Source: a virus
Taxonomy: Duplodnaviria > Caudoviricetes
DNA: 24,410 nt
Strand: one strand, 5' to 3'
IMG/VR virus record: IMGVR_UViG_3300009108_000052
Location: 1-24,410 of that record
Within the stretch, counting starts at the first letter, position 1. Every line of letters starts with the position of its first letter. Shown piece after piece: positions 1 to 24,410 of this stretch. The translations under genes and the position numbers were made by a program. The notes under the pieces were generated by a model. It was not told the DNA's origin, did not search any database, and saw only the letters and a program-made list of their open reading frames with translations.

Positions 1-22
1 ACTATGTAATACAACCAGTTTT
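1..22 (+). repeat. 22-bp direct repeat copy 1 (ACTATGTAATACAACCAGTTTT), upstream of first ORF
   Basis: Identical to 2501-2522; may extend left of the window. Confidence 0.85.
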
Positions 23-43
23 TATTTATTGGAGAGTATCAAA

Positions 44-727
44 ATGATATTATTCGAGACTGATTTATTCGTGATTATTATCACCTTTAAATCATTAAAT
101 AATAAAACGGGGGACATGTGTCAAGTTTGGATAATTAATAAAGAATTTGACCCAGTCACAGCCGTTAAAAACGGTAGTAATTCAATTATATGTTTTGATT
201 GTAAGCATAAGGGTGAGACCTGTTATGTAAATCAGGGTCAAGCACCTTTATCAGTTTATAAAGCATATAAGAACGGCTTATATCAGCCTTTAGACTATGA
301 TGTACTTAAATATCAATTAAAACATAAGTATGTTAGGTTTGGGGCGTACGGTGAGCCTGTATTGATTCCTATTGAATTAATGCAATTTATTGCAGAAAAT
401 TCGAAAGGCTATACGGGTTATACTCACCAGTGGAGCGATAAAAAATACAGCGATTATAAGCAGTATTTAATGGCTTCAGTTGATACAGCCGAAGAGTACG
501 AAAATGCGACTCTTGATGGTTGGCGTTGTTATCGTGTTAGTTCAGATAATACACCTTTAAAGGGTGAAATTATTTGTCCGAATACGACTGATAACATCCA
601 ATGTCGAGATTGTCGCTTGTGTGATGGTTTACATAATCATCCGAATGCAAAAAATATTGTTACACTTGTACATGGTACAGTTGGCAAAATTAACGCATTT
701 AATCGTATTGCAATTGCTACTATTTAA
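44..727 (+). CDS. Cys-rich conserved phage protein, function unknown
   Basis: Track start 29; better start is ATG 44 after GGAG at 31-34. Motifs CFDC..TCY, RFGAYGEP, GYTHQW, MASVD, ICP..CRDCRLC. Confidence 0.8.
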   Translation: MILFETDLFVIIITFKSLNNKTGDMCQVWIINKEFDPVTAVKNGSNSIICFDCKHKGETCYVNQGQAPLSVYKAYKNGLYQPLDYDVLKYQLKHKYVRFGAYGEPVLIPIELMQFIAENSKGYTGYTHQWSDKKYSDYKQYLMASVDTAEEYENATLDGWRCYRVSSDNTPLKGEIICPNTTDNIQCRDCRLCDGLHNHPNAKNIVTLVHGTVGKINAFNRIAIATI

Positions 728-774
728 TAATAAATCAAAGCCCACTGTAATGAGTGGGTTTTTACTTGTTATTA
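725..774 (+). repeat. Intergenic hairpin repeat R1
   Basis: TAATAATAAATCAAAGCCCACT-GTAATG-AGTGGGTTTTTACTTGTTATTA; includes upstream stop, followed by GAGG SD. Confidence 0.95.
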
Positions 775-789
775 TGCGAGGGCTAAAAA

Positions 790-1020
790 ATGTCAAAGAA
801 AAAATGGCTAGAAATAATGAAAGAACTTTCTATAGGAAAGGAAAGCGAAGTTATTCGCAATCCATTTTCGGGTGCTGAAGTAACATTAGACCCAGTAGAA
901 GTTGCCGTTTATGATTATATTAAGGGTTGCGAGATAACCAAAATATATACATATTTTGATGATGCAAGATACTGGTTTATGAAAAAGAATTCACAAGCCT
1001 ATATGATTTTGCTTGATTGA
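790..1020 (+). CDS. hypothetical phage protein (76 aa)
   Basis: GAGG SD, ATG, exactly fills space between R1 and R2. Confidence 0.85.
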   Translation: MSKKKWLEIMKELSIGKESEVIRNPFSGAEVTLDPVEVAVYDYIKGCEITKIYTYFDDARYWFMKKNSQAYMILLD

Positions 1021-1094
1021 TAATAAATCAAAGCCTGTTTTCTATAAATCCTAGATTAAATTCGGGGACGAAAACAGGTTTTTACTTGTTATTA
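1018..1094 (+). repeat. Intergenic hairpin repeat R2 (long apical variant)
   Basis: Same outer arms; inner stem replaced by CCTGTTTTC (1034-1042)/GAAAACAGG (1070-1078) with 27-nt loop. Confidence 0.93.
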
Positions 1095-1109
1095 AGCGAG
1101 GACTAAAAA

Positions 1110-1454
1110 ATGTCTAGAGTTAAATATAAAGTGAAACAAATCGATTGGGATTTAATACCAAATTTCGATAATCGTGCAAGTGTTGAATTTGACGATTATA
1201 TGAAAATAAAAAGTGGTGTTTTCCAAAAAGATTTAGGTGTTTCAAAACTTATAGACCTTGTAAAAAATCGTAACGAATGGTACGAAGTTTGCGAGGGCTA
1301 TATCAATGGCTATTCTTTATGGAATGCTTACCAAGAGGGTAACATCGGTGAGCGAACTTTTAAGGGTGCTTCAATATCAACTGGTGACATCTTGATAGAT
1401 GAAGATAACCAAGAGTGGCTTTTAACTGACCAAGATTTTGAATTGGTCACATAG
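1110..1454 (+). CDS. hypothetical phage protein; C-terminal SISTGDIL motif reminiscent of YodL-like domains
   Basis: GAGG SD; fills R2-R3; family resemblance is weak. Confidence 0.8.
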   Translation: MSRVKYKVKQIDWDLIPNFDNRASVEFDDYMKIKSGVFQKDLGVSKLIDLVKNRNEWYEVCEGYINGYSLWNAYQEGNIGERTFKGASISTGDILIDEDNQEWLLTDQDFELVT

Positions 1455-1456
1455 AT

Positions 1457-1504
1457 TGATAATAAATCAAAGCCCATCTACGGATGGGTTTTTACTTGTT
1501 ATTA
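1457..1504 (+). repeat. Intergenic hairpin repeat R3
   Basis: TGATAATAAATCAAAGCCCATC-TACG-GATGGGTTTTTACTTGTTATTA. Confidence 0.95.
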
Positions 1505-1518
1505 AGCGAGGATAGAAA

Positions 1519-1743
1519 ATGTCAAATATAGATGAATTCGCTGTAAGAGATACAAGCGAAGACAAAACCAAGATATTCGTGGATGAAAATCCAAGAGGTT
1601 GTTTTGACAATGCATTAAGCAAGGGCTTATTCGATAGATTCGAAATGCTCTACTTTATGTATATGTATTCCAAAGAGGGTAGAGATTATTTCAAGCATCA
1701 AAATACTAGAAATTATGTCTCATGCCAACGGGGTGAATCATGA
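1519..1743 (+). CDS. hypothetical phage protein (74 aa)
   Basis: GAGG SD after R3; ATGA overlap with next gene. Confidence 0.82.
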   Translation: MSNIDEFAVRDTSEDKTKIFVDENPRGCFDNALSKGLFDRFEMLYFMYMYSKEGRDYFKHQNTRNYVSCQRGES

Positions 1744-2042
1744 TGGAAAATTCTGAAATTAAAATGATAAGAGATTTTCGTGAAAGTGCGGGAATCGATT
1801 TTAGTGAAAGGGAAACTTTTCTAACTGTGCATCAGCCTGTTAAAGGTTGGTCAGTACAGCAGATAGAATACAGCAAGGAACATGAAAGTTTTATTCCTTG
1901 TGGATTCTTTCCAAATGGTGACATTCTCGAATGGGCTTGTTCATCGGAGGAAGACGCAATCGATGAGGGAATACAATTAGCAACAGAACTTGAATTTCCA
2001 TTTAATTACACCACTGAAAGTGGTCAACATATTTTGTGTTAA
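1740..2042 (+). CDS. hypothetical phage protein (100 aa)
   Basis: Coupled via ATGA; stop lies in R4 left arm. Confidence 0.82.
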   Translation: MMENSEIKMIRDFRESAGIDFSERETFLTVHQPVKGWSVQQIEYSKEHESFIPCGFFPNGDILEWACSSEEDAIDEGIQLATELEFPFNYTTESGQHILC

Positions 2043-2087
2043 TAATAAATCAAAGCCCACTGAAAAGTGGGTTTTTACTTGTTATTA
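2040..2087 (+). repeat. Intergenic hairpin repeat R4
   Basis: TAATAATAAATCAAAGCCCACT-GAAA-AGTGGGTTTTTACTTGTTATTA. Confidence 0.95.
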
Positions 2088-2102
2088 TGCGAGGAGTAAG
2101 AA

Positions 2103-2321
2103 ATGAAAAAAGTACCATTGTTTCAACCTTTCAAAGATATAACTGAGGGTTTTGAAAAATTGGCAGAAATCATTGAAAAGGTAGAAAATGATGATGCGAA
2201 ATACCATTTGATAATTTGGTATGGTTGTTTTCATCAGACCTACAATGAACACCTTGAAAAATTATATGATTGTTGGGCGAATGGTGAAGATGATGATGAT
2301 GTCGCAGAGGGTGAATCATGA
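2103..2321 (+). CDS. hypothetical acidic phage protein (72 aa)
   Basis: GAGGAG SD after R4. Confidence 0.82.
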   Translation: MKKVPLFQPFKDITEGFEKLAEIIEKVENDDAKYHLIIWYGCFHQTYNEHLEKLYDCWANGEDDDDVAEGES

Positions 2322-2425
2322 AATTAATTTTATGGTTATCATTCTTTGGGACTCTATTATTCTTTGTGGCAGTCGCTCTAATTCTCAATGAGTTTTCGAG
2401 AGTTGGACTTCCACCATTTTATTAA
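2318..2425 (+). CDS. small membrane peptide (35 aa, MKLILWLSFFGTLLFFVAVALILNEFSRVGLPPFY)
   Basis: Not in track; ATGA overlap, hydrophobic helix, stop abuts R5. Confidence 0.7.
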   Translation: MKLILWLSFFGTLLFFVAVALILNEFSRVGLPPFY

Positions 2426-2475
2426 TAAATAATAAATCAAAGCCCATCTACGGATGGGTTTTTACTTGTTATTTA
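2426..2475 (+). repeat. Intergenic hairpin repeat R5
   Basis: TAAATAATAAATCAAAGCCCATC-TACG-GATGGGTTTTTACTTGTTATTTA. Confidence 0.95.
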
Positions 2476-2500
2476 GAGCCTCACTTTGTGGGGGGGGGCA

Positions 2501-2522
2501 ACTATGTAATACAACCAGTTTT
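2501..2522 (+). repeat. 22-bp direct repeat copy 2
   Basis: Identical to 1-22; preceded by a G-run, followed by SD of ORF at 2545. Confidence 0.85.
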
Positions 2523-2544
2523 AAACTGCAAGAGAGGAAGTGAT

Positions 2545-2817
2545 ATGACTTATAGGAAAACCACCTTTAATGATTTGCACATAAAAATAGCAGATAGGTA
2601 TTTTGATTTATTCAAGAGCCTTGACCTCGGATATGTTCCAGAGAAAATTGATATTCTTATATCTCTGGGTTACTCACCTTTATCAGAAAGTGATTTACAA
2701 AGATTGCTTGATGGTAGTGATGAAGACTTAGCCCACGATGTTTCTGGAATTAATTCACATATTTCTAGAGAAACAAAACTTATGGATGAGACCTTTGTTC
2801 CTCGATGTATGAGATAG
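2545..2817 (+). CDS. conserved phage protein (possibly DUF6874-like)
   Basis: Track start 2488; ATG 2545 follows GAGG. Motif LL..SD..LAHDV.GI..H..R.T......FVPR recalled from a phage family. Confidence 0.75.
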   Translation: MTYRKTTFNDLHIKIADRYFDLFKSLDLGYVPEKIDILISLGYSPLSESDLQRLLDGSDEDLAHDVSGINSHISRETKLMDETFVPRCMR

Positions 2818-3100
2818 GGGGCTGATATTTTACAAGTGGGTTGCCGAGTGCGACCCACGAAAATGCAGTTACTCGAATACCCTTTGTGTAAGGGAGGTAT
2901 AGAAATAAATGCAACATGCTGAATCAACTATGCATTTACCACAGACTAGCAAAATCGGTATCACAATGTGTCGACTGATTGTGATGCTAAGAGTCCTCGG
3001 TAAAAGACGGTTCGTATCCATGATTAATGCCAATAACCTACAATAATATAATGTGAATGCAAATTACATTTATAAATTGTCAATTTGGAAGACACAAATT
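2818..3100 (+). ncRNA. candidate structured ncRNA A
   Basis: No credible ORF; consecutive helices with G.U pairs on + strand (2836-2858, 2957-2988 and others). Confidence 0.45.
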
Positions 3101-3105
3101 TCAAG

Positions 3106-3134
3106 TTGAATAAATGGTTTTAAAAATCTATACT
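3106..3134 (+). promoter_or_regulatory. sigma70-like promoter
   Basis: TTGAAT (3106-3111), 17 bp spacer, TATACT (3129-3134), AT-rich upstream. Confidence 0.65.
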
Positions 3135-3250
3135 GGTCGTTGGAGGACGACCTTAAAAATACTGTCTACTTTGATTTAGAGATTCTTCTCTAAGACAATC
3201 AAGGTAGACTTCCTCCTCTTTAACTTTTGGAGACTAGTTATGAAATAGTC

Positions 3251-3292
3251 AATATATAAAAGTCTACTTTTAGGGGTAGGCTTTTACATATT
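3251..3292 (+). repeat. Divergent variant of the intergenic hairpin repeat
   Basis: AATATATAAAAGTCTAC...GTAGGCTTTTACATATT; keeps the A.C mismatch and TTTTAC, directly before GAGG SD. Confidence 0.55.
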
Positions 3293-3309
3293 AATTATGA
3301 GGTGAAATT

Positions 3310-3555
3310 ATGACTTTTGAAGAATATGTATATGATTTCTATGGTCAAGGTGACGACAGTCTTTACGGTGAAGAATTCTTCCCGTCTACTGGTGGTGTTA
3401 CTATGGCTGAAATCAGACTAGCAACAAAAATCAGAGAGTTAAATTGTGAGTTACCTTTTGATGGTGACAGTCTAGACAGAGAGATTGTCAGAGACATCAT
3501 GATTAATTCTAGAAATCCAGTTGCTGAGGTAGAACACGGCAACAATTTGAAATAA
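3310..3555 (+). CDS. hypothetical phage protein (81 aa)
   Basis: GAGG SD; stop inside R6. Confidence 0.82.
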   Translation: MTFEEYVYDFYGQGDDSLYGEEFFPSTGGVTMAEIRLATKIRELNCELPFDGDSLDREIVRDIMINSRNPVAEVEHGNNLK

Positions 3556-3598
3556 TAAATCAAAGCCCACTGCTGAAGTGGGTTTTTACTTATTATTT
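3550..3598 (+). repeat. Intergenic hairpin repeat R6
   Basis: AAATAATAAATCAAAGCCCACT-GCTGA-AGTGGGTTTTTACTTATTATTT. Confidence 0.95.
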
Positions 3599-3614
3599 AT
3601 AGGAGGAATAAGTT

Positions 3615-3794
3615 ATGAAAGATATATTCTTAATAAAAATTAGAAATGTTTATGGTAATAGGTTAATTTACCCTGTTAATAGTCTCGCTCTATCAGTTGC
3701 AAAACTGATGGGTAAGAAAACTTTTAACAAAGGTGAAATTCAAGAAATCAAGAAGATTGGATTTGAAGTTCAAGTTGAGCAGGAGGTCTTATGA
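3615..3794 (+). CDS. small conserved phage protein (59 aa, NVYG...YP...GKKT)
   Basis: Not in track; AGGAGG SD, ATG 3615, TGA 3792-3794 overlapping next ATG. Confidence 0.8.
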   Translation: MKDIFLIKIRNVYGNRLIYPVNSLALSVAKLMGKKTFNKGEIQEIKKIGFEVQVEQEVL

Positions 3795-4213
3795 CGGATG
3801 TTATAGATTTGTTTCAATCGGAATTTGGTAATCCAAATAAGTTTAACTTCTTTGCCAGAAAATGTGATGGCTGTGGGTCGGGTATGAACACAGGTTATTT
3901 GGTATCCGATGGGTACACAGCATGTTCAGAAAAATGCTGTCGTAAAGTTGTCGGTGACGATAACTTCAATGATGCCATGACAGAGTGGAAAGAGCATGGT
4001 GATTCTGATTACATTTACTGGACTGACTGGGAAGACTTGGCTAGTGAAGTTGAATGTGATGGTGGTTACTACACCAAGACAGGAGAATTTATTGAATGTA
4101 CTGTTGAAGAAGCCAAAGAGATATTAGTTAAATCTGAATATTTCTCTGATATCTATTTGAGTCCCGATGAAAAGTATGAGAAGTTAATGAAAGAACATGG
4201 GGTAGAACAATGA
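3791..4213 (+). CDS. Cys-containing (CxxC..CxxxC) hypothetical phage protein
   Basis: AGGAGG SD; CDGC and CSEKC motifs. Confidence 0.85.
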   Translation: MTDVIDLFQSEFGNPNKFNFFARKCDGCGSGMNTGYLVSDGYTACSEKCCRKVVGDDNFNDAMTEWKEHGDSDYIYWTDWEDLASEVECDGGYYTKTGEFIECTVEEAKEILVKSEYFSDIYLSPDEKYEKLMKEHGVEQ

Positions 4214-4491
4214 AAAAATTCTACCCACCTGTTAAGTCAGTAACCTTGAGAGACCAACAGACCGTATGGAAAGTTAATTTCAGTGGGGTCAATGGTGATT
4301 TACTTGGCTCAATAAAAAAGACTGAAGCAAGTAATCTCAAGGAAGCAAGAGAAATATTTCTCAAAAAGTATTCTACTAAAGCGAAATGCTTGGCTAATTC
4401 AGATATTAAGGTCGAGGGAGTTCAATATGAACTCACTTGGAATATTAAGTATCAGATAATGAAATTGATGAGACCAATAATCTTAGATTAA
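4210..4491 (+). CDS. hypothetical phage protein (93 aa)
   Basis: ATGA overlap with previous gene. Confidence 0.78.
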   Translation: MKKFYPPVKSVTLRDQQTVWKVNFSGVNGDLLGSIKKTEASNLKEAREIFLKKYSTKAKCLANSDIKVEGVQYELTWNIKYQIMKLMRPIILD

Positions 4492-4502
4492 AGGAGGTAG
4501 AT

Positions 4503-4697
4503 GTGACTGAGAATGAGTTTTTAAAAAGTTGGCATAGGGCAATAGACCATGCCATGCAAATCGTAGATTCTGAGGATGAACGGTATTATGTAGCAGATAA
4601 TACTGGGTTGGTCATGCTCGATGATGTAGATTTGGAAACAGCGTGTGTATACGCCAATAAGATTGATGGCTGTACTGCGTTTAGAAAAATTAGATAG
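4503..4697 (+). CDS. hypothetical phage protein (64 aa)
   Basis: AAGGAGG SD, GTG start; stop inside R7. Confidence 0.78.
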   Translation: MTENEFLKSWHRAIDHAMQIVDSEDERYYVADNTGLVMLDDVDLETACVYANKIDGCTAFRKIR

Positions 4698-4740
4698 TAA
4701 ATCAAAGCCCATCTACGGATGGGTTTTTACTTATTATTTA
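4691..4740 (+). repeat. Intergenic hairpin repeat R7
   Basis: TAGATAGTAAATCAAAGCCCATC-TACG-GATGGGTTTTTACTTATTATTTA. Confidence 0.95.
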
Positions 4741-4752
4741 TAAGGAGAGTGA

Positions 4753-4932
4753 ATGGTATATAAAGTAGGTGATTTAATTATAGCAAGGGATGATCTCGGC
4801 ATTGTCTACGATACTATCGGAAAAATTGAAAGTATCGATAAGGCTCATAGTGGTGAGAAAGTCTATACTTGTAAGTTTGATGTAGGAACTTTTCTACTTC
4901 AAGAGAAACATTTAAATCCATTTAAGGAGTAA
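4753..4932 (+). CDS. small phage protein (59 aa, YKVGD start, possibly SH3/KOW-like)
   Basis: Not in track; AAGGAG SD, ATG 4753, TAA 4930-4932. Confidence 0.75.
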   Translation: MVYKVGDLIIARDDLGIVYDTIGKIESIDKAHSGEKVYTCKFDVGTFLLQEKHLNPFKE

Positions 4933-4934
4933 AA

Positions 4935-5201
4935 ATGAGTTACTGGGAAGATTTCGAATTCAGACACGATGAGGTTACTTTAAGTACCCTCTTGACTTTT
5001 GCTGAAAAGACTGACTTCGGTTACTGGTTTGAACGAGAGATAGGAACTGAGTGGGGTTGGAATGAGTATGAAGAGAATTTCGACAACGGTGAGTTTGACC
5101 AAACTATGTGTGGTCTCTATTTCTTTGAACTAACACAGAGTGACCTTGAGAAAGTCCAAGAGCGAGAGAACTGGGTTTTGGAACAAAGAAAAAATCAATA
5201 A
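4935..5201 (+). CDS. hypothetical acidic phage protein (88 aa)
   Basis: AAGGAG SD. Confidence 0.82.
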   Translation: MSYWEDFEFRHDEVTLSTLLTFAEKTDFGYWFEREIGTEWGWNEYEENFDNGEFDQTMCGLYFFELTQSDLEKVQERENWVLEQRKNQ

Positions 5202-5202
5202 A

Positions 5203-5243
5203 ATATAGCACATCAGACAGGTGTGTTATATCTTATTTATTTT
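5203..5243 (+). terminator. hairpin with T-rich tail, possible terminator or processing site
   Basis: ATATAGCACATC-AGACA-GGTGTGTTATAT then CTTATTTATTTT. Confidence 0.4.
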
Positions 5244-5260
5244 ATGACATCTAGTACAGG
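5239..5260 (+). promoter_or_regulatory. putative phage RNAP promoter P1
   Basis: ATTTTATGACATCTAGTACAGG; matches 9677-9698 and 13355-13376. Confidence 0.65.
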
Positions 5261-5270
5261 AGGAAACATT

Positions 5271-5540
5271 ATGATTGATGAAACAAAGGTTAGTTATTTA
5301 AAGAATGACAAAGTTAAATTAACTATGTCTATGGAATCTTATATTAGATTGCTTAATGGCTACAATGATTTAAATAGTGCCTTAAGAACAATGATGGAAA
5401 TACAGGATTTATATCTAAGTGACATAAACAAGATAGATAATTTCCAATGGGTCTTATTTAGAGGTTTAGGTTTCAAGAGAGCCAAAGATAGTTGCTACAC
5501 CTATGATGCTGTTCTAAGTAACAGTGGGAGGGCAGAGTGA
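5271..5540 (+). CDS. hypothetical phage protein
   Basis: Track start 5223; ATG 5271 follows AGGAGG. Confidence 0.8.
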   Translation: MIDETKVSYLKNDKVKLTMSMESYIRLLNGYNDLNSALRTMMEIQDLYLSDINKIDNFQWVLFRGLGFKRAKDSCYTYDAVLSNSGRAE

Positions 5541-5722
5541 CTAAGGATAATGCTTATTATGGAAGAGATGATGAAATTTGCCCTAAGTGTAAATCTGATT
5601 TGGAATATATAGCATATGAAGATTGGGAGAATGAAATTTGGCATTGTACTGGTTGCAATGCTGACTTCAGTGTTCATCTTAATTATGTTAGAGATTGGGC
5701 TGATATGGAGGAGATGAAATGA
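5537..5722 (+). CDS. small zinc-ribbon protein
   Basis: CPKC...CTGC; GTGA overlap; GGGAGG SD. Confidence 0.78.
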   Translation: MTKDNAYYGRDDEICPKCKSDLEYIAYEDWENEIWHCTGCNADFSVHLNYVRDWADMEEMK

Positions 5723-6033
5723 TTATTTATGAATTAACTAATAAAGGTGACGACAAAAGTGATTTTTATTTATTTAAAGAATCACATCCCGATTCTGAAT
5801 CAATAGTAGTAGACCTATTCTTTAGCAAATATTATGCGACCAAAGATGAAGCAGTGAAATCAAAACGAGATGGTACAAGAATATTCAAACATGAATTGAA
5901 ACCTCTCTCTAGAGATGATGTTGCAATGATTCTATCTATGAATCATGTAGATGTATTTTATGAAAACGGTTGGAACGAACTTCATGATATTTCATCCTTG
6001 GTGAAAAATACTATTGAATTGGAGGTTTCATGA
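5719..6033 (+). CDS. hypothetical phage protein (104 aa)
   Basis: GGAGGAG SD, ATGA overlap. Confidence 0.8.
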   Translation: MIIYELTNKGDDKSDFYLFKESHPDSESIVVDLFFSKYYATKDEAVKSKRDGTRIFKHELKPLSRDDVAMILSMNHVDVFYENGWNELHDISSLVKNTIELEVS

Positions 6034-6266
6034 GGACAGATGATATAAGAGAAATGTTTAATAATATATGTTATCGGACTTTCGATAGAGATTGTTCAGT
6101 CCAAATGGACTCTTTTAAAATGTTGGTAAATAGACTTGATAGTTCGGAATCCAATTATGTAATTCAATGGATTCCGACCAATCCTCTGATGCCCCATAAA
6201 AGTCTAGTAAGGGTTTGGTGTAGCCAAACAGATTATGACGAGGGGGTTACTAATGAAGAAGAGTGA
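6030..6266 (+). CDS. hypothetical phage protein (78 aa)
   Basis: GGAGG SD, ATGA overlap. Confidence 0.78.
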   Translation: MRTDDIREMFNNICYRTFDRDCSVQMDSFKMLVNRLDSSESNYVIQWIPTNPLMPHKSLVRVWCSQTDYDEGVTNEEE

Positions 6267-6351
6267 TTATTGGGAAATTTTATCAACCCTAGTTGTCTTA
6301 ATTTTCCTCATTTGGCTACTTGTATATGTAGTAGATTATTTAATTGTTTAA
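6253..6351 (+). CDS. small membrane peptide (32 aa)
   Basis: Not in track; GAGGGGG SD; MKKSDYWEILSTLVVLIFLIWLLVYVVDYLIV. Confidence 0.6.
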   Translation: MKKSDYWEILSTLVVLIFLIWLLVYVVDYLIV

Positions 6352-6363
6352 GGAATTAGAGTC

Positions 6364-6651
6364 ATGAAAGTAGAAATATTAAAAAAATATATTGTAGAAG
6401 AGGGAACAGATTGGCACGGCGGTATTTTCGCCAAATATCAGTTCCCTAACGGTTATGGTGCAAGTGTCATTAAGAACAGTGTTAGTTATGGTGGTAAAAG
6501 TGGTTTATATGAATTGGCAGTTCTCAACAAGGATGGCAAAATTATATACGACACACCAATTACTGATGATGTTCTTGGGTACTTGACCCTTTTAGATGTA
6601 ACGAAACATCTGAAAGAAGTAAAAAACTTGGCACCCAAACTCGTATCCTAG
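6364..6651 (+). CDS. conserved phage protein (FPNGYGASV...GLYELAVL...TPITDDVLGYL family)
   Basis: AAGGA SD; motif widespread in phage small proteins. Confidence 0.85.
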   Translation: MKVEILKKYIVEEGTDWHGGIFAKYQFPNGYGASVIKNSVSYGGKSGLYELAVLNKDGKIIYDTPITDDVLGYLTLLDVTKHLKEVKNLAPKLVS

Positions 6652-6659
6652 GTTCATAT

Positions 6660-7180
6660 GGGGTTCAATAGTAGTCTGTCTTAGTATGGGCTATTATTGA
6701 TTTACGAAGGAAGTTGAAACTGACGAATGGGTTGGAGAACTTCGCCAAGAGTAATGCTATCTACACTAGTGGGCATTACAAAAGGTCTTTACTCGGTCTC
6801 GCACGAGATAAATAGTAAAGATGACAAGTAGTTGTATACACGACAGTTAACTAATGTACTTCAAGGCTGGGTATCCTTTCCTTTTCACACCATGAGATGA
6901 TTAACAAAAAAGGGGATGCTTGAGGAATATATGAAACAGATAAATGAGGAATGCTAACAAAGAAGAATTCGGTAACCTATGAGTCTATCCGTTAAAATCT
7001 ATAGGCTTTGTTTCACAGCAATTCTCTAGAAAGCATGATTATATTTTTCGAAAATAACTGCCCACCGAATTTAACCGAAGGGGGCAGAGAGAATTTCTCT
7101 GCTGGAGGGTGCAAGACCCTCTTCTTGGTGATATGGGAAGAATTTCCCATAGGGGGGTTCGATTCCCCCCACTTTTTTTT
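6660..7180 (+). ncRNA. candidate large structured ncRNA B (about 500 nt)
   Basis: About 540-nt gap with many helices, long-range pairings 6742-6751/7122-7131 and 6965-6973/7064-7072, and two T-arm-like hairpins. Confidence 0.55.
7152..7180 (+). terminator. intrinsic terminator-like hairpin
   Basis: GGGGGG-TTCGATT-CCCCCC-AC-T8. Confidence 0.6.
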
Positions 7181-7194
7181 AAGAGGAGATATTA

Positions 7195-7509
7195 ATGGCA
7201 AAAGATAAAAGTTACAAGATACACGGAACCACTGTGGACTCCAGTGTTGATATGCCCGATTCAATGGATGTCTATGATAGATATGGAGATTGGGTGGATA
7301 ATGTTCTAGTTGAGGAGGTGGATGGTCACCATAGTGCTGATGCTTACAAAGAGATGGCACTTGAGGAACAATTGGAAGAAATATATGAGACCGTAGTGGG
7401 TGACAGTGGGAGAGATAGGTTTTCCCACGGTGAACTCATTCAAGTTTTAAAAGACCTATATGATGATTCGCAAGTTTTACAAAATATTAATGACTATATG
7501 AGTAAATGA
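7195..7509 (+). CDS. hypothetical acidic phage protein (104 aa)
   Basis: GAGGAG SD. Confidence 0.82.
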   Translation: MAKDKSYKIHGTTVDSSVDMPDSMDVYDRYGDWVDNVLVEEVDGHHSADAYKEMALEEQLEEIYETVVGDSGRDRFSHGELIQVLKDLYDDSQVLQNINDYMSK

Positions 7510-7540
7510 AATGATGGCACAAGAAATGAAGGAATAAATT

Positions 7541-7810
7541 ATGAAAGTAGTAAGGAACAATTGTTATGGCGGTTACGCCTTATCAGAAGAAGCATATAAA
7601 TACTTAGACTTGCCTTGGGATGGCTATGGATTTGAGTTTGAAAACCATAGAGAAAACCCTAGATTGGTAGAAGTGGTTGAAGCATTAGGTAAGAAAGCCA
7701 GTGGTAGATGTGCAAACTTAATAATAGTTGAAATACCTGATGATGCTGAATGGTACATTGATGAATACGATGGTTGGGAAACCGTCAGAGAAAAACATAG
7801 AACATGGTAG
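7541..7810 (+). CDS. conserved phage protein (N.CYGG..LS...VEIPDD..W.I.EYDG.E family)
   Basis: AAGGA SD; recognisable phage family motif. Confidence 0.85.
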   Translation: MKVVRNNCYGGYALSEEAYKYLDLPWDGYGFEFENHRENPRLVEVVEALGKKASGRCANLIIVEIPDDAEWYIDEYDGWETVREKHRTW

Positions 7811-7821
7811 AATAGGAGTAA

Positions 7822-8070
7822 ATGATGGATCAGAAAAAACTGAAAAAATTGGAAGATGTGTACAAACGCAGTCCACAGTATAAATATATTTATTTGGATT
7901 ACGGTGAAGTTATAGAAGAAGTTACTGTTATTGCTAGAGACCGTGCAGAAGCCGATGAGTTGAAAGATGAAGGTCACGGGGAATGGAGAAGACTTCGGGA
8001 GGACTGGAGTGATTCTCGTTTTGATAGAATTGAGGAGATAACCGATGAGGAATATGATGAGAGTATATGA
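7822..8070 (+). CDS. hypothetical phage protein (82 aa)
   Basis: AGGAG SD. Confidence 0.8.
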   Translation: MMDQKKLKKLEDVYKRSPQYKYIYLDYGEVIEEVTVIARDRAEADELKDEGHGEWRRLREDWSDSRFDRIEEITDEEYDESI

Positions 8071-9167: not shown

Positions 9168-9789
9168 ATTAATTGCAATGGTAGAAAGGATTTGCAGAAG
9201 GACAATCCAAGTTATATTTAAAGATATTGATGTTGAGGTGAATCATAACTATTTAGATCACTACCCGAAAGGGGAAGTTAGTGTCTCTGGTAGTTATGAT
9301 GACAACTCTGGTGAAGTTTGTATAACACTTATCTCTAGTTTTAATGACTCGGAAGTCTTTGATTTTAATGATAAAAGTTATGACTGGTTTAACAGTGAAT
9401 TGGTTAAAGTTTTAAGACACGAAGGAATTCACATTGAGCAAGATTTGAGAAATGATTTCTCACCCAGTCTCCACTCTGACGAGCATACTTACTTTTCCGA
9501 TGATTTGGAAATTGAAGCATATGGAAGAGCAGATGTTCCGTTAGAAGTTAGAGAAAGTTCGGAGGGTAGTTCTAAAACAGTAGAGATGTATATAGATATG
9601 TTCGGAAAAGACAGTGACGAAGTGAGAAAACTTTTACATTTCTACAAGATAGAGACAGGTTTGGATTACCCTTTGAATTATATGACATCTAATACAGAAG
9701 ACCTAACTAAAGCAGAATGTTTTAATGCAATAGTTGAAGGTATGAAAATATTAGGTTGGGATGATGAAAAGGAACATAATGGAAAATAA
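9154..9789 (+). CDS. HExxH zincin-like (putative metallopeptidase) protein
   Basis: LRHEGIHIEQ followed by YFSDDLEIEAYG; GGGAG SD. Confidence 0.65.
   Translation: MTIPKLIAMVERICRRTIQVIFKDIDVEVNHNYLDHYPKGEVSVSGSYDDNSGEVCITLISSFNDSEVFDFNDKSYDWFNSELVKVLRHEGIHIEQDLRNDFSPSLHSDEHTYFSDDLEIEAYGRADVPLEVRESSEGSSKTVEMYIDMFGKDSDEVRKLLHFYKIETGLDYPLNYMTSNTEDLTKAECFNAIVEGMKILGWDDEKEHNGK
9677..9698 (+). promoter_or_regulatory. putative phage RNAP promoter P2 (upstream of clpX and RNAP)
   Basis: ATTATATGACATCTAATACAGA. Confidence 0.6.
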
Positions 9790-11113
9790 AGACTGTATTT
9801 GTGCAATTTGCACAGGAGGTAAGTCAGATAAGGATATATTTAGACTTATTGAGTATTATAAAAAAGTTGTATGTGAGGTTTGTTTGCAGACAGTAGTGGC
9901 ACCTGCCTCACCTAAACTTTTTATCAATTATGTCAATAAAGGAAAAATCCTTTATGAAGATTTAAAGAAAGAACAAGATTACATAGAGTCACTAGATGTG
10001 GTAGATTCTTATTTTGAAGACAATGATGTTGGATATGCTGTTAAACCCGATGGTTCAATTATAAAAGCAAAGGGTGTCAGTGGTAAAGAGATAGAAGAAA
10101 CGACACCAAAGACCCTATTTAATTATCTAGAGGAAAATGCAGTAGGTCAAACAGAGGCAAAGAAAACTTTATCAGTTGCAATGTATAACCATTTTAAAAG
10201 AATTAAATTGAAGAGAGAAGGTATAGAAATTAACAAAAACAACATACTTCTTGTAGGAGGGACAGGTGTTGGTAAAACCTTCATAACTTCATTATTAGCA
10301 AAGAAATTGAATTTGCCATTCGTTGTTGCAGATGCAAACAGTTTAACCCAAGCAGGGTATGTTGGGGGCGATGTAGAGGACATATTGGACTCACTTGTAC
10401 AGAAAGCCAAAGGAAATTTAGATAAGGCACAGTGTGGAGTCGTTATTATTGATGAAATAGACAAGATTTGTTCTAATAAGTCTACAGGAGTTAAAGGAAG
10501 AGATCCGAGTGGTGAGGGTGTACAACAGGCACTTCTAAAATTTATCGAAGGTGGTGAGTTCAGAGTAGGTGCAGGTTATAAGAATGGTGTTAAGAAGAAA
10601 AGTTATATATTTGATACTACAGATGTTCTTTTTATTGTTGCAGGTGCTTTTACTGAAATTGAGGAAATAGTAATTTCAAGAGAAAGAGGTGACAGTATGG
10701 GTTTCCTAAGTGGCAACCAAGACAAATTGAGCAAGGATGAAATATATAGAAAAGTCGCCCACGAGGATTTTGAAAAATTTGGTATAATTCCTGAATTGTT
10801 GAGTAGATTACCAACTAGGGTCTCGTTAAATCCCCTTACTGAATCAAACCTAATAGATATTATGTCGAAAATTAACAACAACTTGGTAAGCCAATACAAG
10901 CATTTATTTGCAGAGGATGGGGTCGAATTTAAAATTACAAAAAGTGCGTTACAAGAAATTGCAAGGAGTTCTATATTAGAAAATACAGGTGCGAGAGGTT
11001 TGCACGGAATATTCGAACACCTTTCTAGAGAAATTATGTTTGAGTCGCCTTCTGACGATTTGATAACTGATTTCACAATAACTAAAGAAGATGTTATTAA
11101 CTTAACTTTATAA
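9779..11113 (+). CDS. clpX: ClpX-like AAA+ unfoldase
   Basis: N-terminal CAIC..CEVC Zn motif, GQTEAKK, Walker A GGTGVGKT, GYVG pore loop, Walker B IIDEIDK, GEGVQQALLK, MGF loop, GARGL; track start 9761, ATG 9779 after AAGGA. Confidence 0.93.
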   Translation: MENKDCICAICTGGKSDKDIFRLIEYYKKVVCEVCLQTVVAPASPKLFINYVNKGKILYEDLKKEQDYIESLDVVDSYFEDNDVGYAVKPDGSIIKAKGVSGKEIEETTPKTLFNYLEENAVGQTEAKKTLSVAMYNHFKRIKLKREGIEINKNNILLVGGTGVGKTFITSLLAKKLNLPFVVADANSLTQAGYVGGDVEDILDSLVQKAKGNLDKAQCGVVIIDEIDKICSNKSTGVKGRDPSGEGVQQALLKFIEGGEFRVGAGYKNGVKKKSYIFDTTDVLFIVAGAFTEIEEIVISRERGDSMGFLSGNQDKLSKDEIYRKVAHEDFEKFGIIPELLSRLPTRVSLNPLTESNLIDIMSKINNNLVSQYKHLFAEDGVEFKITKSALQEIARSSILENTGARGLHGIFEHLSREIMFESPSDDLITDFTITKEDVINLTL

Positions 11114-11126
11114 AAACGGAGGTTTT

Positions 11127-13355
11127 ATGGATAAGAGGGAACTACTATTATTACAAATCTCGTCACAATTAAATCATATGTCCCAAACGATAAGCAAGGG
11201 ACGGCAGTCTGCATTTAAGAAAGTTTTACTCGGTGCAGACAGTGTAAGAACAATAGCAGAAGATATTCTAGATTTTACAATTAGTGCGTTGTCGAAAGGT
11301 ACAGCGTTGACATCGACAGCATCAGCATTGGCTTCTAGAATGAATGTGCATACTCAATTCAATTTAAAATCGGGGACTTCACAGAAAGCAGAGGCTACTA
11401 TGATCTCAGCAGGAGTAGAAGCCTTAGGTTCCTTAGGGTCTCTTGGTTACACACAAGTGGTGACAGAGTCTCAAGGTGTTATGAAATTGAATAGATTAGA
11501 TTTTAAAGATGAGCGAAATTTACTTTTTCGTTATTTTCAAGAAATAAAACAGGTGTCGCCAATCGACTTACCCCTAGAGGAGTACAAGGGTTGGACACAT
11601 CCATACAAGAATGGTGTGCCAATAGTCAAGAAGATGCCACCAGAATTAAGTAAAAAATACCTGTATAAGAGGATGCCAAAAGTATACGATGCTTTGAACT
11701 CTTATGGGTCAACATCATTTACAGTGAATGAGGAGTTGTTGGAAATTGTCAAGGAGTTTGACAAGGACGACCACCCCTATATACCTAAAGCTGTAGATAG
11801 TGAGGAAGTAAGCAAGTCCCTCAAGAGTCTTCTGAGTTTCAAAAGAACATCAGAATTTGTAGGGAGACAAGCAAAGAAGTGGTATCTGGCTAATGTCAGT
11901 CACCAACTCTTAAAGAAAGGTCTAACAGTTGCCCAGATAGACGGTAGAAGTAATACTTACAAGAAGAGAAAAGCCTCTGGATGGATGAAGGATAAATCAT
12001 CAGATGCTTTGGATATAGTAAGAGCATCTTCCAAGAGATATGAATTTGACAGGGTTATGGATATGGCTACTCTAATGATTGATAAGGCTTTTCATTACGA
12101 TTTTCAATTAGACAGCAGAGGTAGATTTTATCCAATTGTTAATTACTTTGAACCTACAGGCTCAGATTTAGCGAAAGGATTATTGATGTTTAATCACGGA
12201 GTGTATTGGACTGAAGAAGTCGAAAGGGCTTTGGCAATACATACAGCAAATTGTGCAGGTGAGGACAAGATATCTATGGATGATAGAGTCCTCTGGACTT
12301 ATGTTTGGATGCCAGAGATACTAGAGGCATCTGAAGACCCTCTGAATTCTAAGTGGTTAAGACAATTCAGTGGCGATAAGAAGACCAAGTTTCAATTAAT
12401 ATCTGCTATCTTAGAGTGGAAGAAGTTGGAAGAGATGGGTAGGGATGACTATGTTTGTCATTTACCTATAGGTCTAGATGCAACCAATTCTGGGCTACAA
12501 ATCTTATCCGCTATGACTAGGGATAGGACAGGTGCTGAAGAGACAAATGTGGTAAACCATCCAAGTAAAGAAATTGGAGACGCATACATGGTTATAGCGA
12601 GATCTGTTCTTGATGGTGGTTTCTCTTATAAGAGTTTTGAAGATTTAGGTGATAAGGCTTGGAGGAAACTTTGCAAAAGACCAACAATGTCTTACTACTA
12701 CGATGCTGGTAGAGGTTGTATACAAGACCAAACCTTCGAAGATAGGCGTGACCACGGTTATGATATATTGTCAGAGATGACATATGATGATTCTGCCTAC
12801 ATAGGTACTGCCATTTTTGATGGTGTTAGGTTGGCATTCCCTAGACAAACACAAGCTAAAGACCTTTTGAAAAGAGGTGTCTGTGTATATCTAGAGAATA
12901 GTGGTAACAAGCCAATGATTACTTGGAAGACAGCCACAGGATTTACTGCTTTCCAGAATTATGCAAAAACTTCTATTAAAAGAGTAAATTGTATGTTTGG
13001 GAGTAGACCTGTGAAATTGAGTTATCAGGTTTTTCTTGATGAGGCTAGAAAGACTGACCATGAGAGGGGCATAAGTGCTAATTTTGTACATTCTCAAGAT
13101 GCATCTCTATTAACTTTAGTTATCTGTAGACTAGCAGAACTCGGTGCAATCAACTTTATGATGATTCATGACCAGTTTTCAGTAAGTGCAGATAACTTAG
13201 AACTACTTCTTAATGTATTTAAGGAGGTTTTTCAAGAGATATTTGAAAAAGACCAGCTTGGATCTACAATAGAAGCTTTTGGTCTTGAAGATGAAATTGA
13301 CTATGGTGATTTACAAATGGATGAAATTTCGGAATCCAAGTATATTATCTCTTAA
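11127..13355 (+). CDS. single-subunit T7-family DNA-directed RNA polymerase
   Basis: DSRGRFY, motif A LDATNSGLQILS, motif B RKLCKRPTMSYYY, ANFVHSQDA, motif C IHDQF; GGAGG SD. Confidence 0.95.
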   Translation: MDKRELLLLQISSQLNHMSQTISKGRQSAFKKVLLGADSVRTIAEDILDFTISALSKGTALTSTASALASRMNVHTQFNLKSGTSQKAEATMISAGVEALGSLGSLGYTQVVTESQGVMKLNRLDFKDERNLLFRYFQEIKQVSPIDLPLEEYKGWTHPYKNGVPIVKKMPPELSKKYLYKRMPKVYDALNSYGSTSFTVNEELLEIVKEFDKDDHPYIPKAVDSEEVSKSLKSLLSFKRTSEFVGRQAKKWYLANVSHQLLKKGLTVAQIDGRSNTYKKRKASGWMKDKSSDALDIVRASSKRYEFDRVMDMATLMIDKAFHYDFQLDSRGRFYPIVNYFEPTGSDLAKGLLMFNHGVYWTEEVERALAIHTANCAGEDKISMDDRVLWTYVWMPEILEASEDPLNSKWLRQFSGDKKTKFQLISAILEWKKLEEMGRDDYVCHLPIGLDATNSGLQILSAMTRDRTGAEETNVVNHPSKEIGDAYMVIARSVLDGGFSYKSFEDLGDKAWRKLCKRPTMSYYYDAGRGCIQDQTFEDRRDHGYDILSEMTYDDSAYIGTAIFDGVRLAFPRQTQAKDLLKRGVCVYLENSGNKPMITWKTATGFTAFQNYAKTSIKRVNCMFGSRPVKLSYQVFLDEARKTDHERGISANFVHSQDASLLTLVICRLAELGAINFMMIHDQFSVSADNLELLLNVFKEVFQEIFEKDQLGSTIEAFGLEDEIDYGDLQMDEISESKYIIS

Positions 13356-23613: not shown

Positions 23614-24410
23614 TTAGCCTCCCATTAATACTTCATTTAAACTACTATAACCTGCTGGGGGTTTTAAATCACCCTCAGTTTTTGTACCCAATGCACCATC
23701 TTTATAAGATTTAATACCTCTAGCTATCTCCCTTTTATTTGGATTAAGCATTCTCTCGTTTACTCTTTCTACGACTTCATTGAATGGTATACCAGTTGCT
23801 TTTGCTACTCCTTCTATCAACTCTTTCCTTAGATTATAACCATTATGCATTTCAATGAATACTTTACCAGCTATCTCTTTAGTCTTTCTAACATCTGGAG
23901 CCATGATAAAGAAAGCATCATGAACTACATATACAGGTACCCCTGCCTCGTTTAGTGCAATAACTAATTTAGTTAAATACCCAGCATCTACCATATGAAC
24001 TGCATTAGGGGATAAAGCTGAAGCCATACTCTTCATAGAGTCAGTTACAAATGGTTCTTCGTGTACCATTTTATTCTCTACTGCCCACACTCCTAAATCC
24101 GCAGAACTAATCCCTTTTCTAATAGCCGCTGGTGTTGATGCCATTCTTATAGCCAATGGATCAGTAGGTGCAATTGGAATTTCACTTGTTAATGTAATGT
24201 CTTTTTTCGCATAAGCTTCTTTCTTTTTCCCACTTTTAGTTAAACCTTTTGATTGTTTAATTTGAGGAAAATCTGGAAGTAAATTTACCTTTACTCTTTC
24301 CCGTGATACTTCAAACTGAGTTGCATATATTGTAAAATCAGTTTGATGACCAGAAGGTGATTTTACTAAAAGTGCTTTTCTAGGAGTACCTGATAATGGT
24401 GCTTCATTGT
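23614..24410 (-). CDS. C-terminal part of a second, divergent T7-family RNA polymerase (5' end outside window; possible virion RNAP)
   Basis: Frame stays open from 23614 to window end; LLVKSPSG, SALSPNAVHMVDA and VYVVHDAF match T7 WVTPDG, SGIAPNFVHSQD and IHDSF. Confidence 0.8.
   Translation of the reverse strand, partial: NEAPLSGTPRKALLVKSPSGHQTDFTIYATQFEVSRERVKVNLLPDFPQIKQSKGLTKSGKKKEAYAKKDITLTSEIPIAPTDPLAIRMASTPAAIRKGISSADLGVWAVENKMVHEEPFVTDSMKSMASALSPNAVHMVDAGYLTKLVIALNEAGVPVYVVHDAFFIMAPDVRKTKEIAGKVFIEMHNGYNLRKELIEGVAKATGIPFNEVVERVNERMLNPNKREIARGIKSYKDGALGTKTEGDLKPPAGYSSLNEVLMGG

Follow-up and report, generated by a model that had tools for sequence, protein, structure and literature searches.

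In phage T7, the early precursor RNA of about 7,000 nucleotides (nt) is cut at five sites (excerpts of PMC4858673), and an RNase III site is defined by a proximal box (three A-U/U-A pairs, then G-C) and a distal box (U.G, U-A), with the apex of the substrate left free and the distal box possibly differing among species (excerpts of PMC1540722). According to the same excerpts, any distal-box change in a minimal substrate costs more than 5-fold with E. coli RNase III, and an upper helix of 10 base pairs (bp) costs 50-fold. The A-U/G-C and U-G preferences are common to B. subtilis (excerpts of PMC11780869), and mismatches can restrict cutting to one strand, leaving a protective 3' hairpin (excerpts of PMC3867540). 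Other repeated intergenic RNA structures in phages include clustered type II hammerheads flanking single prophage genes, whose purpose is still a proposal (excerpts of PMC3088659), and the PeSL cassettes of T4-like phages, which carry a sigma-70 promoter between the stem-loop and the Shine-Dalgarno (SD) sequence (excerpts of PMC4122927). Here we describe a repeated hairpin that divides the early genes of an uncultured tailed phage, in IMG/VR record IMGVR_UViG_3300009108_000052 (positions 1 to 24,410, hereafter the window), a 24.4-kb piece of genome identical to part of a 32-kb viral contig. On the basis of sequence, these repeats are probably RNase III processing sites of the T7 style that double as joints for recombination.

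The seven main copies lie on the + strand at 725-774 (copy 1; predicted cuts before 737 and 765), 1018-1094 (copy 2, with a long apex; before 1030 and 1085), 1457-1504 (copy 3, with a cUACGg apex; before 1469 and 1495), 2040-2087 (copy 4, with a GAAA apex; before 2052 and 2078), 2427-2474 (copy 5, with no SD after it and no second hairpin at the cut; before 2439 and 2465), 3550-3598 (copy 6; before 3562 and 3589) and 4692-4739 (copy 7; before 4704 and 4730). These copies had been reported in a first-pass annotation made from the letters alone, and they are real: searching all 24,410 nt for both 17-nt arms at 0-2 mismatches returned these seven + strand places only, and the reported starts are right within 1 nt (2426 and 4691 were each placed 1 nt early). 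All seven fold into a lower stem, a 3x3 internal loop and an upper stem of 10-13 bp. The variation among them preserves pairing as had been claimed, with U.G becoming U-A in copies 6 and 7, extra G.U pairing in copy 7 and a swap of the outer pair, and the apices are likewise as described (cUACGg in three copies, plus GAAA); these tetraloops are not conserved in relatives. Every copy overlaps a stop codon or starts within 3 nt after it, the stop before copy 5 belonging to an open reading frame (ORF) of 35 amino acids (aa) at 2318-2425. For the two copies that were tested, folding z-scores are -4.7 and -4.9 on the sense strand, with none of 200 shuffles as good, and -2.3 and -1.9 on the antisense strand. 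This asymmetry, the G.U pairs and the covariation back the earlier proposal that the element acts as sense-strand RNA.

Two parts of that description need revision. The AUC/UAC internal loop is present in all seven copies, but it is readable as an A.C mismatch, a U-A pair and a C.U mismatch, and the element is therefore a near-continuous duplex of about 21 bp. The count of seven stands for the main copies, but two diverged members in the same register, at 3247-3296 and 5193-5241 (both + strand), had been overlooked. A scan of the window for the ~21-pair geometry gave 11 sense-strand matches, nine of them with a perfect 10-pair upper stem and all within 737-5205; these nine are the seven copies and the two diverged members, each of which is a duplex of about 24 bp that retains the A.C mismatch, the first with G-C at position 4 of the upper stem and the second without a U-run. 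All nine sites have 19-24 pairs with 1-2 mismatches, about two helical turns on the transcribed strand. The 3247-3296 member may alternatively be the 3' end of a structured block at 2817-3246. A covariance model (R1), which the first-pass annotation had proposed, was built and run; it scores copy 2 poorly because of the long apex, and it added none to the known copies, either in the window or across the remaining 9.2 kb of the contig. No Rfam family exceeds its gathering threshold (the best, STnc100, reaches 24.7 bits against 47 needed), and a literature search outside supplements and subscription papers returned nothing on this phage lineage or hairpin element.

To place the RNase III boxes, we took the register from the excerpted text of PMC1540722 and the hairpin that precedes T7 gene 1.1. 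Read this way, all 21 sites have A-U/U-A at positions 1-3, a fit partly imposed by the search patterns, and 19 of them carry a 5' G at position 4 (of the 21, G-C in 8, G.U in 11, A-U in 2). The distal box includes U-A in four of the seven main copies, in three main copies matches that of the T7 hairpins before genes 0.5 and 1.3, and is canonical in a sister clade described below. When copy 1 was compared with T7 positions 1-8000, the top three of 315 hairpins were all intergenic, lying before genes 0.5, 1.1 and 1.3, with 14, 14 and 13 of 20 positions identical (the maximum in 20 shuffles was 13), and the T7 hairpins before genes 0.3 and 1 have 10 positions and a tetraloop in the same register. 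With a looser filter and six queries, the T7 terminator TE ranks 5, 3, 24, 1, 1 and 190 of 2353. The likeness to T7 is clean for the copy 1 type under the strict filter only; otherwise the cut sites are not separated from TE. The T7 records that were searched have no RNase III annotation, and we take these hairpins, from their position, to be those named R0.3-R1.3. The one preceding gene 1.1 also agrees with the GCAA loop and the boxes given in the excerpts of PMC1540722.

Like the T7 early sites, the window sites are intergenic hairpins placed ahead of SDs among the early genes of a phage whose polymerase is T7-like. The two share AAG at positions 2-4, C-G at 7, A-U at 8 and similar pairs at 9-10, as well as a free apex and an interruption at the cut. 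Unlike T7, the window has nine sites in 4.5 kb, seven of them nearly identical, and its element has a symmetric mismatch region where T7 has an offset internal loop. The window element also has a U-run, G.U at position 4 and a second hairpin at the predicted cut, and genes are swapped at the sites.

This second hairpin is a 5-bp structure at 765-780 (+ strand) in copy 1, which begins at the predicted cut and cannot form together with the lower stem; equivalent hairpins start at 1085, 1495, 2078, 3589 and 4730 (5-6 bp) and at 3287 (4 bp), and no stable one was found at copy 5 or at the 5193 member. A hairpin of at least 5 bp starting at the predicted cut base is present in 15 of 20 distinct downstream 22-mers, where shuffles give 5.6 (a count this high in 1 of 2000) and other SD regions 81 of 270 (30%). 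In energy, its fold and the long fold are within 1.3-3 kcal/mol of each other in six of the seven copies, and one base accounts both for the swap of G-C for A-U in the small hairpin and for the change from U.G to U-A in the lower stem. This arrangement supports an RNA end at the predicted cut base, without naming the enzyme.

A metagenome scan gave 15 loci, of which nine are relatives with 25 copies and six were dropped because the element does not form. Exact-pattern matches in viral contigs come from the window's own genome only (100% identical) and are not independent, and contigs of relatives at 86-96% polymerase identity stop short of the array, leaving this range unsampled. In the close relatives, apices vary freely (4-33 nt, many sequences) and the lower stem takes G.U pairs, and in one copy (L074) the U-run is shortened while G-C is restored. 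The AUC/UAC loop is identical in 32 of 32 close-clade copies, an invariance that is circular to the extent that the search pattern demanded this core. L107 and L108 contribute no hairpin. Gene order between copies differs from that of the window, and new genes stand between copies, three of which recur across several contigs. When relatives are aligned with the window, 36 alignment ends are internal, and 20 of these come no farther than 20 nt from a copy, against an expected share of 12%; this count includes some events several times, the contigs being interrelated, and assemblies can misjoin at repeats. Elsewhere in the array, a short repeat at 1731-1743 and 2309-2321 lies at gene overlaps, and five relative alignment ends fall at 1743, a possible second joint. 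A relaxed pattern returned 26 other loci, 20 without hairpin formation and six belonging to one unrelated family of low-GC prophages. These prophages (L031, L038, L041 3001; also L025, L034, L036) share with the window the core formed by loop and upper stem; their 9-bp lower stem differs and is lost in three of the six loci.

A sister clade, with polymerases 64-68% identical and a shared ClpX-polymerase layout, carries two repeated elements in the corresponding region. One is a long duplex (15 copies, 7 loci) with the same AGUGGG 3' arm and AUUG/CAAU instead of AAAG/UUUU, which stands before the SD and has no U-run, every copy having just 2-3 U among the 8 nt that follow the GC core. Its lower stem, which lay outside the search pattern, has 9-11 of 12 positions paired against about 5 expected. 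Taking the two clades together, 19 distinct sequences show 91% pairing across the 22-pair duplex, with two-sided changes at 13 pairs; none of 500 shuffles pairs as highly and slid controls reach 35-51%, figures that do not amount to a probability since the sequences are related. The AUC/UAC sequence is not kept in the sister clade, although the interruption at positions -3 to 0 is, and the two hairpin types may have a common origin or may be convergent. Loci L085, L097, L099, L101-L103 and L106 also have the sister-clade upper stem and a partly paired lower stem (8/12) before an SD.

The other element consists of putative type II hammerheads, called with a descriptor whose type II layout follows excerpts of PMC3088659. 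They lie intergenic on the sense strand, with stems of 5-7 bp and a covarying pseudoknot of 4-5 bp, and alternate with the hairpins along one operon. Five to six occur per early operon (L058 127-4840, L059 226-6520; others at L062 3297, L094 6779, L108 1733 and in L157), and one further candidate follows the polymerase gene (L058 9812, L059 11603, L063, L108). Rfam misses these putative hammerheads of the relatives. After one of them, L059 1915-2270 holds sequences that by eye are like transfer-messenger RNA (tmRNA) and tRNA and for which ARAGORN is negative. Among 44 hammerhead-bearing viral loci, R1 has two matches, L117 (same contig as L086) and L157. The slot is of the same kind as that of the clustered hammerheads flanking single prophage genes (excerpts of PMC3088659), and hammerhead cleavage also leaves a hairpin at the new 5' end. 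Unlike hammerheads, the window element lacks the catalytic fold, with no descriptor match in the window for the core and three stems, and would need a protein.

We propose that host RNase III would cut these duplexes of about 21 bp on the sense strand, dicing the long early transcript into short messages as in T7. The RNase III dimer would bind the upper stem, with its A-U-rich proximal box and G at position 4. Cutting would separate UA from C on the 3' strand of the mismatched middle; the 5' strand would perhaps be cut before AAAG. The upstream RNA piece would then retain a 3' hairpin, and the freed 3' arm of the lower stem could refold as the small hairpin at the 5' end of the downstream piece, beside the SD. 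The U-run of the seven main copies may in addition cause some termination, and the near-identical DNA copies likely give homology for gene insertion, deletion and reordering. A more ambitious version, which we offer tentatively and regard as possible but not as our expectation, is a two-state cut-and-cap module: cleavage of the long fold would flip the 3' arm into a 5'-terminal hairpin that shields and tunes the next gene, the repeat would double as a DNA joint for gene swaps, and in one clade this protein-dependent module would have spread through the entire early operon, with the sister clade doing the same job with a mix of hairpins and hammerheads.

The array in which the copies stand consists of short co-directional + strand ORFs (29-5540), split by the hairpins into blocks of 1-4 genes of almost entirely unassigned function. 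Further genes encode a phage-borne ClpX (9761-11113, above the NCBIfam cut-off and kept in relatives), directly downstream of it a T7-like single-subunit RNA polymerase of 742 aa (11127-13355, + strand), which served as the lineage marker, a primase-helicase, a DNA polymerase and a ribonucleotide reductase. At the end of the window lies the C-terminal part of a second single-subunit-type RNA polymerase (23614-24408, - strand), which is 1342 aa long in the longer identical contig (L113 4715-8743), where it stands among large late-type genes; it has no close named family and is possibly a virion enzyme. None of the cultured phages is close, the best rows of the polymerase search being 25-30% identical, and none is similar over window positions 700-2500. 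A 22-nt repeat at 1-22 and 2501-2522, both before genes, is a possible promoter; the contig begins at the first, and the second is preceded by a small hairpin and a G-run, themselves 3' of copy 5. Another repeated motif, at 5244 (after the 5193 hairpin), 9682 (before or near ClpX) and 13360 (after the polymerase), is a candidate phage promoter. The noncoding block at 2817-3246 is conserved, with several covarying hairpins across four relatives, and to the eye parts of it resemble a group I core or tmRNA, but neither ARAGORN nor Rfam gives a hit. Finally, about 540 nt at 6652-7194 lack a long + strand ORF, end in a hairpin like a tRNA T-arm followed by U8, and are absent from a 96% relative (L008).

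The first-pass annotation had favoured a standardised processing or protein-binding site, and of its readings a processing site of T7/RNase III type has the best support here; terminators and promoters for the second RNA polymerase were its alternatives. Leaky or antiterminable intrinsic terminators, copied with gene cassettes and with the lower stem secondary, are rather unlikely in our judgement but the most serious of the rivals. All seven main copies have a GC hairpin followed by UUUUUACU, as intrinsic terminators such as T7 TE do, six of the seven are flagged by a terminator scan, TE resembles the hairpin arms, and the low-GC prophage family keeps the core at loci where the lower stem is lost. 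The lower stem here, however, is maintained by compensatory and G.U changes, giving an extended duplex unlike TE that is repeated inside one operon. The U-run is absent from all 15 sister-clade copies and from the 5193 member, and the L074 copy described above shortens it. Furthermore, six copies are followed after about 12-17 nt by a start codon, without a conserved promoter (an extended -10 in 3 of 32 copies). Termination is possible for the seven U-run copies; the terminator's 3' end would fall 1-3 nt from the predicted cut, and termination and cleavage may both operate. Uncut stabiliser hairpins that block exonucleases, or binding of a phage protein at the AUC/UAC loop, would fit the loop's identity in the close clade, selected as it was by the search pattern, and the stable tetraloops of some copies. 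We consider this improbable, since the loop is altered in the two diverged members, where the A.C mismatch alone survives, and is wholly different in the sister clade, which weakens the case for sequence-specific binding, and since the best explanation for a hairpin that competes with the lower stem and starts at one fixed base is an RNA end made there.

The N4 phage offers the model for DNA hairpin promoters read by a second, possibly virion, polymerase, and a second polymerase-like protein is encoded here and the copies do precede genes. N4 promoters have short stems and 3-nt loops, against loops of 4-33 nt here; folded as DNA, the template strand does worse in five of the seven copies and equally well in two, with G.T pairs lost; and the repeats at 1 and 2501 and at 5244, 9682 and 13360 are better promoter candidates. 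The hairpin-promoter proposal is not supported, and we give it a very small chance. We think just as little of composite terminator-plus-promoter cassettes of the PeSL type, or of neutral recombination repeats without an RNA role. As with PeSLs (excerpts of PMC4122927), a repeated intergenic stem-loop stands before an SD in a variable region, and gene insertions, losses and reordering map to the copies. The window element differs in having no promoter, for which there is no room between hairpin and SD and of which no conserved -10 was seen in the copies, in its long covarying lower stem and in its different phage group; pairing under selection also argues against a neutral repeat.

RNase III processing with a role as recombination joints is the reading that we favor, and several observations weigh against it. 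All seven main copies have G.U instead of G-C at position 4, where four of the 15 sister-clade copies have A-U (nine have G-C and two G.U); the canonical distal-box U.G occurs in none of the seven. TE equals or outranks the T7 cut sites for four of the six queries, and R1 fails to find the T7 sites. All seven main copies have 6 U in 8 nt, and four of five scored copies are positive as terminators, above TE, by a crude, approximate formula that mis-scored an obvious candidate at 7152. In L068 a plain U7 terminator-like hairpin occupies the slot of the 3247 member. None of the 15 sister-clade copies forms a stable hairpin at the cut, and no gene was found at which the hairpin of one relative corresponds to a hammerhead in a second. 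The interrelated contigs and possible misjoins noted above temper the evidence for joints in the same way.

The basic mechanism would be that of T7, and the surprise is moderate. What is most likely new here is that the element is standardised, has two states, is used as a gene joint and is paired with hammerheads in relatives. Because one lineage combines hammerheads and RNase III-type hairpins within single operons, the idea that both dice the early message becomes testable. If the proposal is true, a 50-nt repeat combining a cut site, end protection and recombination homology would explain how these phages swap accessory genes without loss of expression, and the two clades would form a natural pair for asking why phages dice their early mRNA.

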